From Clostridia bacterium (GTDB lineage Bacteria; Bacillota; Clostridia; UMGS1840), in assembly GCA_045631485.1 (NCBI GenBank), contig JAZQUU010000039.1, positions 41,194-105,193 on the forward strand: a stretch of DNA of 64,000 nucleotides, read 5' to 3'. This document shows, in pieces, positions 30,071 through 62,775 of this stretch. Positions within the stretch are counted from its first letter, which is position 1; the number at the start of each line of letters is the position of its first letter. The position numbers and the translations under genes were made by a program. Below the pieces are notes generated by a model. The model made no database searches. It saw only the letters and a program-made list of their open reading frames with translations, and was not told the origin of the DNA.

Positions 30071-30328
30071 AACTTCTCCTAATTAAATCAGTTGAGCTGA
30101 ATCAACAAATTTCTTAATTTTCTTCCAATCATTTAATTGCCCTTCTTTCACCTTATGCTCTCCTTTCAACAGAGTCTTAACAGAACGAAAAACTCTGTCA
30201 CAGATAACAGTGATATTGTAGGGTTCGGCGATTTCCGACGAACCGAATATTTTTTTAAAACATCCTAAAGGCTGTTCCCTACAAATCCAACTGATTCAAA
30301 ACGTATCGCATCCTATTTACTTGTTTTT

Positions 30329-30591
30329 ACGAAGTTCGTGTCAAGTCAGGAGAACAGTGAATAATAAGAACCATCACGAAATATAACGAAATCAAAGATT
30401 TCTATATTTCGGAGAACCTTGATACTCGCAGGCTCGTATTAGGACCTACTATTTTTATCCTTATTTTTCACTGCTTTTCCCTCGAACAATTTCCTTAGAA
30501 CCCGCGAGAATAATGGATTTTCTCGCACCCGATGATATATGTAAATATCAAAATCGGCAAACTATTCTTTTAAATTGTATGGACTTGACAC
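30329..30591 (-). repeat. Copy A of a ~260-nt conserved structured non-coding element (candidate ncRNA or ssDNA-structured element), immediately 3' of ORF 30605..31129
   Basis: It is homologous to 52462-52738, with long identical blocks. It has a covarying hairpin at 30378-30410 and the hairpin GCGAGAA-N9-TTCTCGC at 30504-30526. A 10-bp terminal helix pairs 30338-30347 with 30582-30591. There is no credible ORF. Confidence 0.75.
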
Positions 30592-30604
30592 AAATCTTAA
30601 TTTG

Positions 30605-31164: not shown

Positions 31165-31199
31165 GACACGATTCTTACTCGTGTCAAGTCAGGATAAAA
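31165..31199 (-). repeat. 5' hairpin site of unit A (LE-A)
   Basis: The minus strand reads TTTTATCCTGACTTGACACGA-gtaagaa-TCGTGTC. The 21-nt core TCCTGACTTGACACGAGTAAG is identical to the distal end of element copy B. Confidence 0.7.
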
Positions 31200-31209
31200 A
31201 TATACTATC

Positions 31210-31238
31210 ATTCTATCACACAAATGCTATAATGTCAA
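31210..31238 (-). promoter_or_regulatory. Sigma-A type promoter firing into LE-A and cargo gene A
   Basis: On the minus strand, TTGACA, a 17-nt spacer, then TAGAAT preceded by an extended -10 TGa. The predicted start site falls a few nt before the conserved TTTTATCC. Confidence 0.6.
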
Positions 31239-45315: not shown

Positions 45316-45352
45316 TTGTGATTAACCTTTCCGCTCATCGTATAAACCCGCT

Positions 45353-45372
45353 ATGACAAACCTATAATAAAT
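45353..45372 (-). promoter_or_regulatory. Direct-repeat motif copy 1 (degenerate second unit), upstream of the GGDEF gene
   Basis: The plus strand reads ATGACAAACCTATAATAAAT. The flank AAACCCGYTATGACAAACCTAT is shared with copy 3. Confidence 0.45.
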
Positions 45373-45919
45373 TTGAGATGCGTTTTTTTGCGTTATCCAT
45401 AATTTCTTGCACATTTGCGCCGAAGATATCAAGCCCTTCTGCCGAGTAAAAGCTGATATCCGAAATACCGAAAAAGTTTTCCGAAAGTGCTTTTACATAG
45501 TCAAAACCGAAATTGTTGTTGCCGATATACCCACCCGAGGTAGTGATATAATATAACTTTTTAGCTTTGCATTTACTTACGGGGCGACCTTCTTCGGAAT
45601 ATTCGAAAGTGATTCCCGAAACTGTGATATTTTCCAAATAAATTTTTAAAATAGCAGGAAACGACAAATCCCAATACGGTGCCGCAATCACAATCATATC
45701 CACATTTGCAAACTGCTTTGCATATTTCATTTCCTCCTCGGAAACCGTATGCAATGCTCTTTTATCGATGTCTTGATTACAAAGGGGTAAAATCTTCTCT
45801 TGATACAAATGAACTTCGATGACTTCCCCGTTCAAGCCATTAAGTAAATGCCTTGAAAGTTCATCGGTTCTTGAATTTGGCCTTGCACAAGCATTGATAA
45901 ACAAGATTTTATTCTTCAT
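45362..45919 (-). CDS. Flavodoxin-like fold NAD(P)H-dependent FMN oxidoreductase
   Basis: Its ~185 aa, with the N-terminus ILFINACARPNSRT and ITTSGG, fit the NAD(P)H dehydrogenase (quinone)/azoreductase-like family. Confidence 0.7.
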   Translation of the reverse strand: MKNKILFINACARPNSRTDELSRHLLNGLNGEVIEVHLYQEKILPLCNQDIDKRALHTVSEEEMKYAKQFANVDMIVIAAPYWDLSFPAILKIYLENITVSGITFEYSEEGRPVSKCKAKKLYYITTSGGYIGNNNFGFDYVKALSENFFGISDISFYSAEGLDIFGANVQEIMDNAKKRISNLL

Positions 45920-46222: not shown

Positions 46223-46274
46223 AAAAATTCTCCTTTCAAAGAACATAACATAAATATAAAATAGCATATCCGAT

Positions 46275-46294
46275 ATGACAAACCTATGACAAAT
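46275..46294 (-). promoter_or_regulatory. Direct-repeat motif copy 2 with an embedded -35, upstream of the STAS/flavoprotein genes
   Basis: The plus strand reads ATGACAAACCTATGACAAAT. On the minus strand this is TTTGTCATAGG-TTTGTCATATC, then 17 nt to TATATT. Confidence 0.55.
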
Positions 46295-46348
46295 TCAAAT
46301 TTATATACAAAAAATACGGCCGGATGATTCCGACCGTAAACATATTTA

Positions 46349-52272: not shown

Positions 52273-52347
52273 AGTAATTCTCCTTAGTTCATTTATTTCT
52301 TCTTACCAAATTAAATACCAATTATTTTTTATATTATCAAACCCGTT

Positions 52348-52367
52348 ATGACAAACCTATGACAAAT
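52348..52367 (-). promoter_or_regulatory. Direct-repeat motif copy 3, upstream of gene 51262..52272
   Basis: The plus strand reads ATGACAAACCTATGACAAAT. On the minus strand this is TTTGTCATAGG-TTTGTCATAAC, then 15-17 nt to TATAAA/TAAAAA. Confidence 0.55.
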
Positions 52368-52375
52368 TATTTTAT

Positions 52376-52428
52376 AAAAAAACAAAATGCAATACTCGTA
52401 TGTATCTGACAAACAAGTATTGCATTTT
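52376..52428 (-). terminator. Rho-independent terminator ending the cargo-B plus element-B transcript
   Basis: A 13-bp stem, AAAATGCAATACT/AGTATTGCATTTT, is followed on the minus strand by T7. Confidence 0.8.
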
Positions 52429-52461
52429 AGTTTAACATTGAGATTTATTATAAAATCATTT

Positions 52462-52738
52462 GACACAACGCTTACTCGTGTCAAGTCAGGAGAACAGTGA
52501 ATAATAAGAACCATCACCCAACACGAAATCACAGATTTCTGTTGGGTACCCGAGAGCCTTGATACTCGCAAGCTCGTATTAGGACCTACTAACTTTTCCC
52601 TATTTTTTCACTATAGTTTTTCCGAACAAAATTCTTTAGAACCCGCGAGAATACTGAATTTTCTCGCTCCTGCTTTTTATGTAAATATCATAAATCGGCA
52701 AACTAATATTTTAAATTTTATAGACTTGACACGAGTAA
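52462..52738 (-). repeat. Copy B of the ~260-nt conserved structured non-coding element, immediately 3' of ORF 52747..53484
   Basis: It is homologous to 30329-30591. A perfect 16-bp terminal helix pairs 52472-52487 with 52723-52738. It has a covarying hairpin at 52517-52546, the hairpin GCGAGAA-N9-TTCTCGC at 52645-52667, and a distal hairpin GACACGA-N7-TTGTGTC (minus sense). Confidence 0.8.
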
Positions 52739-52746
52739 AACAAAAA

Positions 52747-53484
52747 TCATCTTATATCAAATGCACACTCGTCGGTTGTGTTAGTTAATTCAGCCCACCT
52801 AGCTGAAAGCAATTTGGCATAGTCCAAATAAAACAAACCATAGCACCCTAACGCATATCCGTCATTTACTTCAATCATCAATGTCCTACCATCATCAGTT
52901 ACACCAAAGTCTATTGCATATCCTTTGGGTGCAGTAGAGAAAGCTTTCACAGCATCCTCAATGACCGATGGGTTATAGTGAATTTTCCAATCACCTTTGT
53001 ATGGTCTTACATCCAGTATTTTGTCATATCTAACAAAACATCTCCACTCTGCTGTAAAATTTACAATTTCAGAGCACATCGCGTCGGGATCTTCCCCACA
53101 TGTTCCACACCCTATTAAATCTTTAGGAGACCGAACAACAACACCAGTAAATTTTTTATCTTCAACTGGCTTCACAAAAACTGGCCACATGTCTGGATTA
53201 TTGGTTACTTGACTCATTTTTACCGGCCAGATTTTTCTTCCTAAAAATCTTGACAACTCATTAGGGTAATCCATTTCAGGTGTTATAATATTAAAATCAA
53301 ACAATCTTTCTCTTACTGTACCAACATATCCAACAACCACATCTTCAATGTTACTTTTTCTTAATTCTTCGGGAGTTTGGAACATAATCGTTTCAAATCC
53401 CATTTCCTTAAATCCCTGATAAGCATTAAAAAAATTATAATTGTGTGGCATATAATCATTTTTAGATTGTATATACACTTTCAT
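52747..53484 (-). CDS. ATP-grasp-like protein (DUF4343-type), cargo gene of repeat unit B
   Basis: FVKPVEDKKFTGVVV, EWRCFVRYDKILDVRPY and YAIDFGVTDDGRTLMIEVNDGYALG resemble the ATP-grasp DUF4343 family. Confidence 0.65.
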   Translation of the reverse strand: MKVYIQSKNDYMPHNYNFFNAYQGFKEMGFETIMFQTPEELRKSNIEDVVVGYVGTVRERLFDFNIITPEMDYPNELSRFLGRKIWPVKMSQVTNNPDMWPVFVKPVEDKKFTGVVVRSPKDLIGCGTCGEDPDAMCSEIVNFTAEWRCFVRYDKILDVRPYKGDWKIHYNPSVIEDAVKAFSTAPKGYAIDFGVTDDGRTLMIEVNDGYALGCYGLFYLDYAKLLSARWAELTNTTDECAFDIR

Positions 53485-53526
53485 TAAGTATTCACCACCA
53501 TATTTCCTTGTTTTTCAATCTTATTC

Positions 53527-53561
53527 GACACAATTCGAGTTCGTGTCAAGACAGGATAAAA
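53527..53561 (-). repeat. 5' hairpin site of unit B (LE-B)
   Basis: The minus strand reads TTTTATCCTGTCTTGACACGA-actcgaa-TTGTGTC, which has the same architecture as LE-A. Confidence 0.7.
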
Positions 53562-53700
53562 CAATTGTTTTAATATCGATTAACCAAGCTTAAAATTTGA
53601 AAATTTAAATATTTCTTTTATTAGTCACAGTATAGCACTATCCCCGGTTTGTGTCAAGGAATCTTCCCGGAAAAAAATATTGATTTTTTTATAAAAATGC

Positions 53701-61762: not shown

Positions 61763-62041
61763 TTATTTAATCTGGGGCAGAATTTTTTCTACATCACCGT
61801 GCGGTCTCGGAATAACGTGAACAGCAACGATTTCGCCCAGTCTTGCAGCAGCTTCAGCGCCTGCTTCGGTAGCAGATTTAACTGCACCAACGTCGCCTCT
61901 AACCATAACGCTTACTAAACCGGAACCGATTTTTTCAGTACCGATTAAGGTAACGTTAGCTGCTTTTACCATTGCATCAGCTGCTTCAATTGCAGCTACT
62001 AAACCTCTGGTTTCAACCATTCCTAAAGCTTCAAAGTTCAT
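61763..62041 (-). CDS. BMC-H hexamer shell protein (PduA/EutM-like)
   Basis: [27 protein letters not shown]. The start lies 8 nt after GGAGG. Confidence 0.92.
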
Positions 62042-62087
62042 TACGAATACCTCCATAATTTATTTTTTGTTTTTTACGAAATTGGAT

Positions 62088-62444: not shown

Positions 62445-62723
62445 TTACTTTAATTCGGGTAAGATTTTTTCCACATCGCCGTGGGGTCTGGGAATTACGT
62501 GTACAGCAACGATTTCGCCTAATCTTGCAGCAGCCTGAGAGCCTGCTTCGGTAGCAGCTTTTACTGCACCAACATCGCCTCTAACCATAACACTTACTAA
62601 ACCGGAACCGATTTTTTCGGTACCAACTAAAGTAACGTTAGCTGCTTTTACCATTGCATCAGCTGCTTCGATTGCAGCTACTAAACCTCTGGTTTCAACC
62701 ATACCTAATGCTTCAAAATTCAT
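62445..62723 (-). CDS. BMC-H hexamer shell protein (near-duplicate of 61763..62041)
   Basis: The 92-aa protein differs from the 61763 paralog at only a handful of residues. Confidence 0.92.
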
Positions 62724-62775
62724 TTTTAAATCCTCCTGGCCTTTGGCCTTTTATAATAATTTTTATTAACGATTG

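Follow-up and report, generated by a model that had tools for sequence, protein, structure and literature searches.

The Correia elements of Neisseria are intergenic repeats of about 100-300 bp that carry terminal inverted repeats and promoters and whose transcripts may form long stems, and Spo0A-controlled leaders with tandem 0A boxes (e.g., that of abrB) hold these boxes head-to-tail at a 10-bp spacing. The dif modules of Acinetobacter (pdif, XerC/XerD) are accessory modules bounded by short alternating inverted sites and shuffled without any module-encoded recombinase (PMC6449649, PMC13141974). Complete integrons have not been found in Firmicutes (PMC4889954), the phylum to which the hosts considered here belong. 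This analysis concerns a 64,000-nt stretch of DNA from a Clostridia bacterium (contig JAZQUU010000039.1 of assembly GCA_045631485.1, positions 41,194 to 105,193; hereafter the window) and, within it, an ATP-grasp gene on the minus strand that lies between copies of a 16-nt core (unit B). Unit B is one cassette of a modular architecture that is found throughout a clade of uncultured gut Clostridia (relatives of the Oscillospiraceae, e.g., Congzhengia and Ructibacterium). Each cassette runs from the 16-nt core through a short leader with TGNCGAA-type boxes phased at 10 nt and a ribosome-binding site to a cargo open reading frame (ORF) and, usually, to an inverted copy of the core (IR-L). Between or after cassettes stands either a bare junction of T-run and core or a 184- or 258-nt element (the P-element) that ends in the next core. 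The architecture recurs in arrays with highly diverse cargo, its P-element holds a promoter-like segment followed by hairpins that covary in the sense strand only, and identical cargo occurs in many contexts, the join on its left falling at the core.

The spread of the family was established by scanning one genome per species for the pattern TNTTNTCCTGNCTTGACACGA, which gave at least 116 matching stretches. All of them, except four or five chance matches, come from metagenome-assembled genomes (MAGs) of uncultured Clostridia from ruminant and other animal guts, with Congzhengia, Ructibacterium, Acutalibacteraceae and Oscillospiraceae among the hosts, so that the similarity noticed at four sites of the window in an earlier note on this DNA extends far beyond them. 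The comparison DNA consists of metagenome assemblies throughout and was read in 8-kb blocks around the sites. At least two cores lie within 8 kb of each other in 48 of 112 loci, and the arrays frequently keep to one strand. A profile of the elements of unit B and of a second unit in the window (unit A) matched 223 elements in the collected loci (nhmmer), in size classes of about 184 nt (short) and about 258 nt (long), the latter including both window copies. In same-strand arrays these elements lie 0.6-2 kb apart and the order core, ORF, IR-L, element, core recurs, with IR-L decayed or absent in about one third of the elements.

The core occurs in two settings. In one of them it closes an element (...TAGTAGGTCC...TATTATTCACTGTTC-core). 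In the other it stands solo, with the consensus T5-6-N-TCCTGA-CTTGACACGA and nothing conserved upstream of that; such sites, at about 80 of which the core has no element, lie behind an unrelated promoter or directly past the stop codon of the upstream ORF. In about 100 of 134 cases the core is followed by an ORF start at a distance of 25-75 nt, and the intervening leaders are of several types (GTAAGAATTNTGTCGAATGATG..., ACTTTGTCGAATTTTGCGAAAGGAG..., AAAGTCGAAT... and others). At least five variants of the bases that immediately follow the core are present in the family, GTAA and ACT being the commonest. The TTGACA contained in the core was considered as a -35 box and rejected, as an acceptable -10 at 16-18 nt was found in only 20% of 194 sites, against 9-26% in shifted controls. 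The family could not be traced to phages or plasmids either, IMG/VR giving one chance match and BLAST against PLSDB and INPHARED giving none. A literature search for the core strings retrieved unrelated human shRNA and primer matches only, and none in the bacterial literature searched.

The genes carried by these cassettes are extremely varied. The 89 proteins that follow a core contain 97 Pfam families, each present in at most three ORFs, and include Abi_alpha, CAT, methyltransferases, GDSL lipases, GH2, GH35, BspA repeats, SLH proteins, transporters and DUF4379 nucleases; by a crude rule, about 40% of the cargo has an N-terminal signal or membrane segment. The movement of cargo between contexts is best seen for the protein of unit A, which occurs in exactly the same form on nine further contigs from different samples, ten contexts altogether. 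Upstream of it there are at least seven contexts (six kinds of solo site and three different elements), and downstream at least four different neighbours, while the element that follows it may be short, long-v1 or long-v2. In all contexts the homology begins at CTTGACACGA, which travels with the gene on its left together with the leader, as does, on the right, its peculiar IR-L (GGTTTGTGTCAAGTCC). Core positions 1-6, on the contrary, follow the upstream context in these loci (TCCTGA, GCCTGA, CCCGGA, TCCCGA, GCCTGG or TCCAGT). The cargo of unit B is found in three contexts: the window, locus L118, where an identical protein lies behind another ORF, and locus L143, where a 97% copy lies behind an SLH gene with its own promoter; both of these loci have T-run and core upstream and IR-L and the start of an element downstream, and here too the homology sets in at the core. 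More distant homologues of this protein, which belongs to the R2K clade, have 84% identity or less and stand in other settings without core or IR-L. Those of 78-84% identity (L144 1-7707; L145-L147) occupy two such settings, a defence-like island (AAA_21/DUF4435, ResIII, T5orf172, HEPN_AbiU2) and a conserved operon in which three genes encode a 362-aa protein, a radical SAM enzyme and R2K.

A similar picture emerges when whole loci are compared between MAGs. Blocks of high identity start at the core in the pairs L047/L090, L006/L057, L099/L104, L017/L038 and L002/L087. The left joins vary over the first 10-15 nt past the core, and the right-hand ends lie variously at IR-L, 32-40 nt inside the element, in its middle part or at the 3' core. 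In the syntenic island shared by L069 and L016 there are two and four variable genes, respectively.

The P-element is predicted to supply a sigma-70-type promoter and a structured 5'-leader RNA. Its 5' half keeps a promoter-like segment in two versions, TTGCCG-16-TATACT and TTGCAA-17-TGATATAAT, and shortened elements are joined to unrelated leaders or ORFs exactly past the -10 or past hairpin 1. Downstream of this segment lies a multi-hairpin structure, examined in 28 long elements, in which 98.8% of cells are paired, as compared with 36-48% in slid controls. Pair changes affecting both sides number seven versus 2.7 in shuffles, a value of seven being reached by none of 500 shuffles, and the constant G.U pairs are compatible with the sense strand only. 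The long type is distinguished by a 75-nt insert, which occupies the loop of the hairpin TAGTAGG/CCTATTA; the stem of this hairpin exists in at least four compensated versions. A comparison of the window and of 17 loci with Rfam gave no match that reached the gathering score, the matches being at chance level only (E up to 10). Some elements contain an extra insert of about 110 nt (TATAATATATGCAACAAGCCTTGCG...) directly past the -10 (L033 5360-5469, L078 835-960), indicating that the element tolerates insertion at module boundaries.

The leader that follows the core shows a pattern of its own. In the first 70 nt past the cores 71 TGNCGAA boxes were observed versus 3.3 expected, all in a single orientation, and successive boxes are spaced by 10, 20 or 30 nt only. 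TGTCGAA represents the consensus core of the 0A box of Spo0A (PMC3485338), and by this resemblance the phased array would be operator-like. The mean extension of the pairing of IR-L is 1.57 with its own 5' site, 1.48 with the next 3' site and 1.70 with random partners; as pairing does not rise above random, the perfect 16-bp inverted repeat formed by IR-L and the 3' site of unit B just reflects two consensus forms. Mismatches between IR-L and core comprise 43 G.U versus 11 A.C, a sense-strand bias that is suggestive only, one common polymorphism being dominant.

Within the window the core TCCTGNCTTGACACGA occurs exactly four times, always on the minus strand, against 0.09 copies expected by chance, and these copies are the 5' and 3' sites of units A and B (Table 1). 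The earlier note had described a core shared by the four sites, two loop variants and a common stem. The core and the distribution of the variants, GTAAG at A-5' and B-3' and ACT(T)CG at B-5' and A-3', agree with that description; the common stem does not, as the A-3' flank (from 30335 downward, ACTTCGTAAAAACAAG) has no TYGTGTC arm. Several of its other statements on unit B were borne out: on the minus strand, 53561-53527 read TTTTATCCTGTCTTGACACGA, then ACTCGAA, then TTGTGTC; the ORF is the proposed DUF4343-type ATP-grasp (PF18299 at 4e-55; PF14243, formerly DUF4343, at 4e-41); the conserved non-coding element begins about 10 nt past its stop codon (9 in the note); and a strong terminator closes the unit. 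The TATTAA at 53575-53570, which had been proposed as a -10 mirroring the geometry of unit A, gives way to a better match at 53657-53629 with a counterpart in unit A. In addition, the note did not include IR-L, the inverted third core copy directly past each ORF. The interior of the P-element of unit B comprises, in order, a promoter-like TTGCCG segment (degenerate in B), the hairpin GCGAGAA/TTCTCGC, an A-rich region, the insert-bearing hairpin TAGTAGG/CCTATTA and a TTCACTGTTC tail. The cargo protein of unit A has no Pfam match.

Table 1. Features of units A and B in the window (window positions).
Feature	Positions	Strand	Basis
Unit B, predicted promoter, TTGACA-17-TATACT with extended TG	53629..53657	(-)	11/12 sigma-70 consensus positions
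Unit B, 5' site: T-run and 16-nt core TCCTGTCTTGACACGA	53541..53561	(-)	sequence reading, core count
Unit B, leader: ACTCGAA loop, TTGTGTC arm, A-rich repeats phased at 10 nt, ribosome-binding site	53485..53540	(-)	
Unit B, TGTCGAA box of the leader (0A-box-like)	53530-53524	(-)	sequence match
Unit B, cargo: R2K-clade ATP-grasp, 245 aa	52747..53484	(-)	Pfam match
Unit B, IR-L: inverted core copy TTTTACTCGTGTCAAGTC	52723..52740	(-)	repeat analysis
Unit B, P-element interior, long type	52492..52722	(-)	
Unit B, 3' core TCCTGACTTGACACGA	52476..52491	(-)	core count
Unit B, 3' post-core: GTAAGCG and TTGTGTCAA arm; leader start without an ORF behind	52460..52475	(-)	
Unit B, terminator: 20-bp stem/hairpin, then T-run	52376..52428	(-)	
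Unit A, predicted promoter, TTGACA-17-TAGAAT with extended TG	31210..31238	(-)	consensus match
Unit A, 5' site: T-run and core	31179..31200	(-)	
Unit A, cargo: 174 aa, N-terminal membrane segment	30605..31129	(-)	
Unit A, IR-L GATTTGTGTCAAGTCC	30581..30597 (approx.)	(-)	
Unit A, P-element interior, long type; stem variant unlike that of unit B	30352..30580	(-)	
Unit A, 3' core, then ACTTCG; hairpin arm absent	30336..30351	(-)	

From the criss-cross of the two loop variants it had been argued that units A and B had recombined with one another or been assembled from a common pool. Only the second part of this argument stands. GTAA and ACT being the two commonest variants of the pool, the criss-cross is uninformative on a direct exchange of A by B. 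Moreover, the variants are independent of the kind of site at which they occur (solo, short-element or long-element; chi-square 4.06, df 6, p=0.67), as assessed by the test that the earlier note had proposed. The elements of units A and B share 83% identity overall and 100% in their final 42 nt; in the all-pair comparison, in which the mean is 0.81, the A element has an identity of 0.82 to that of B and of 0.89-0.90 to elements in MAGs of other species. Concerted evolution within the genome was also considered and rejected, each of the two window elements being closer to elements in other MAGs (0.88-0.90) than to the other. Variants that are independent of position and elements that do not track the genome indicate that the units come from a common pool, and the sequence comparisons support an assembly of these loci from such a pool in which the shared core is the place of joining.

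How cassettes move is a different matter. The explanation favoured here, to which we give an even chance, is that they would be swapped through recombination in conserved expression-signal flanks. It is proposed that the conserved segments are kept as expression signals (promoter, leader RNA and operator-like box array) and that, being dispersed repeats, they would double as portable homology arms, with core and leader on the left and IR-L and P-element on the right. Through these arms cargo ORFs could be copied or swapped across loci and genomes by homologous or short-homology recombination (gene conversion), and no element-encoded recombinase would be required. The bases to the right of a core would then belong to the downstream cassette or its remnant and, with two variants dominating the pool, the criss-cross seen in the window would arise. 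Scattered breakpoints, the lack of a recurrent recombinase in the 8-kb blocks around the sites and of empty element-to-element junctions, and the absence of covariation between IR-L and its partners all fit recombination in the flanks better than one precise crossover. Several considerations weigh against this proposal. The core has sharp boundaries and hardly varies from genus to genus, even where it stands solo behind unrelated DNA, as would sooner be expected of a site for recombination or for specific binding than of an expression signal of a generic kind. The loci were collected by the exact core pattern, so that the invariance of the core is overstated, TAGTAGGTCCTATTATTCAC being an alternative, non-core anchor for gathering elements without this bias. 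The left homology arm at solo sites measures only about 25-45 nt, short for RecA-type recombination, and IR-L, decayed in about one third of the elements, has at most a putative role in a homology-arm model. Finally, joins within the 184-258-nt element could be assembly chimeras, while those at the 16-45-nt core and leader fall below typical assembly k-mers and should be reliable.

A sharply bounded, near-invariant solo core with a left arm of such a length keeps a dedicated trans-acting recombinase in play. It is possible, though we doubt it, that an enzyme encoded elsewhere recognises the 16-20-bp core in an integron- or dif-like manner and that it acts on direct cores, or on the inverted pair of core and IR-L around each ORF, to insert, excise or exchange cassettes at pre-existing T-run and core sites downstream of promoters. 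Such a mechanism would account for a core kept in unrelated contexts and for the division at its sixth position, upstream bases going with the context and CTTGACACGA and leader with the cargo. It would also suit the inverted repeat of about 20 bp, GACTTGACACGAGTAA(G/A)AAT, that brackets the ORFs, the co-oriented arrays of small diverse ORFs (median 235 aa), an alternation of site orientation like that in dif-module arrays (PMC6449649) and the 9-7-9 palindromes present at three window sites. However, no recombinase recurs near the sites in the 8-kb blocks of the 112 loci: clustering of the neighbours yielded AraC-type regulators (in 10 loci) and large serine recombinases (in 5) as the largest groups, and no conserved recombinase or regulator was found among the large cargo ORFs. 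Furthermore, breakpoints are scattered instead of fixed, the geometry of the palindrome is not conserved (arms of 6-9 bp and a loop or spacer of 7 or 13 nt across the family), neither empty element-to-element junctions nor circular forms were found, IR-L shows no covariation with the post-core sequence of its own site or of the next one, and the element past the cargo of unit A differs among contexts. Were such an enzyme at work, the dispersed T-run and core sites behind promoters would be landing pads of a recombinase-driven cassette-capture system with a promoter-bearing, structured spacer as the counterpart of attC, in other words a functional integron analogue in a phylum that lacks integrons, a view that we put forward tentatively.

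Mobility of the element itself offers further explanations. That the 184/258-nt segment from IR-L to core is a promoter-bearing, non-autonomous transposon of the miniature inverted-repeat (MITE) kind, with the ORFs as passive neighbours, is unlikely. Its ends are inverted repeats of about 20 bp and its length is 200-280 bp; it is intergenic, occurs in many copies, contains a promoter and could form long RNA stems, all of which would be expected of such a transposon. Yet what changes context is the ORFs, which are joined at the repeats, target-site duplications are not visible, the core stands without an element at the solo sites, IR-L is often missing, and the constant co-orientation of elements with flanking ORFs would not result from random insertion. 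Inverted repeats of 12-20 bp around 170-245 bp with a promoter, upstream of many surface-type genes, also bring to mind an inverton, in which IR-L and core would be the ends of a phase-variable promoter switch through which a global invertase toggles surface and accessory genes. The presence of one conserved repeat at many loci recalls the Mpi-type systems of Bacteroides. Nevertheless, none of about 123 elements in the MAG loci is flipped, a scan of metagenome contigs met no flipped junctions versus 15 normal copies, and the TCCT of the core, which would lie on the interior side, is conserved at solo sites as well; an invertible promoter was rejected on the lack of flipped copies and is very improbable. 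The least credible in our estimate is single-strand transposition by an HUH enzyme (IS200/IS605-like) with the core hairpin as the subterminal recognition structure, a possibility implied by the candidate HUH proteins of the earlier note. A hairpin does lie beside the left join at three of the four window sites and is very stable at A-5' (z -3.3), but it is absent at A-3', its stability is confined to that one site (z about 0 family-wide) and its loop is not uniform. Neither a TnpA/HUH gene nor any other recombinase recurs next to the sites in the 8-kb blocks, the cargo likewise contains no TnpA/HUH gene, Rfam gives no HEARO or omega-type RNA, and these units carry inverted repeats, which IS200/IS605 elements do not have.

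The remainder of the window is ordinary chromosome, with genes for PolC, aconitase, Pgi, CCA-adding enzyme, Tex, FeoAB and SLH/NlpC-P60 proteins, of which tex, feoAB and cell-wall genes make up the flanks. Sister strains with an empty site were sought through the exact FeoA protein, which is not on record. Other observations concern the surroundings of the cores. Past the last core of several arrays lies a conserved hairpin-rich segment of about 230 nt (AAAAAGCCTTCCCCTTGAGGGGAAGGTG...CCTTATGTGTCGCAAT; L008 3640-3870, also L034, L053, L062, L084 and L109, and partly window 30170-30290). It has no Rfam match, its opposite strand ends with a terminator-like hairpin and T-run, and the window flank past A-3' partly matches the variant in L109. 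In L029, L034, L037, L052 and L143 a motif composed of AAAATATCGRGC, a small hairpin and ATATCGAC is found about 45 nt upstream of the solo cores, just before the T-run, and includes reverse 0A-like boxes. A block with a large serine recombinase starts directly past the solo core of L048 (4600-4900); at the homologous place in L022 (7000-7300) the core has decayed to TTATAACTTAATATGA, mainly by GC-to-AT changes. L027 contains at 1718-1798 a ZMP/ZTP riboswitch (42.7 bits, above the gathering score) that is unrelated to the cassettes. In the window itself, a direct repeat TGTCATA-N4-TGTCATA (minus strand TTTGTCATAGGTTTGTCATAAC) occurs in three copies, at 52339-52368, 45344-45373 and 46266-46295, upstream of a 336-aa gene and of the SLH/NlpC-P60 gene cluster, and presumably resembles a response-regulator site of the WalR type. 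Lastly, a 292-nt direct repeat of 88% identity lies at 61763-62054 and 62445-62736, with a spacing of 682 nt.

If this architecture is real in living cells, a large group of uncultured Clostridia of gut and rumen would have a way of shuffling accessory genes that relies on neither integrons, insertion sequences nor phages, the shuffled cargo ranging over surface proteins, transporters, glycosidases, abortive-infection proteins, nucleases, a chloramphenicol-type acetyltransferase and the R2K ATP-grasp. The 16-nt core would provide a simple sequence tag for this variable gene pool in metagenomes, and the P-element a new structured leader RNA with a predicted promoter, potentially useful as a regulatory part. 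The question raised is whether Firmicutes possess a cassette system of their own or whether conserved expression signals alone can act as recombination handles.

The comparison with known systems bears on this question. Like integrons, these loci hold co-oriented arrays of small unrelated accessory ORFs, each followed by an imperfect inverted-repeat element that opens with an inverse core directly past the stop codon and closes with a core; neighbours are joined in the core, the first cassette lies behind a promoter, and the repeats are highly similar to one another, as in sedentary chromosomal integrons. Unlike integrons, they have no adjacent integrase, no intI tyrosine recombinase being recurrent beside the arrays in the 8-kb blocks of the 112 loci. 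The core TCCTGACTTGACACGA and its inverse TCGTGTCAAGTC differ from the R'' (RYYYAAC) and R' (GTTRRRY) cores of attC. The element measures 184-258 nt instead of the 57-141 of attC and is branched, with its own promoter and sense-strand RNA pairs, and the cassettes are distributed over many separate small loci rather than one platform. With dif modules they share the traits given at the outset, namely short alternating inverted sites around shuffled accessory modules that encode no recombinase. Those modules, however, are bounded by 28-bp Xer sites of 11-6-11 structure (XerC and XerD arms of 11 bp around a 6-bp spacer), in contrast to the short arms and unfixed spacing found here, and reside on plasmids, whereas the present loci are chromosomal, with all ORFs in one orientation and a promoter/leader element alternating with the ORF modules. 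Correia elements and promoter-bearing MITEs are likewise intergenic, promoter-carrying repeats with terminal inverted repeats; here no target duplication is visible, the co-orientation with genes is strict, the genes between the repeats move and the core also stands alone. In the leader, the boxes that match the 0A consensus (TGTCGAA/TGNCGAA; PMC3485338) lie head-to-tail at 10-bp spacing downstream of a promoter and appear to follow the plan of Spo0A-type tandem leaders, with the difference that here they double as the 3' arm of the core hairpin. This architecture was not found described in the literature searched and, although it fails the defining sequence and enzyme features of integron cassettes and dif modules, it resembles both of them in its logic.

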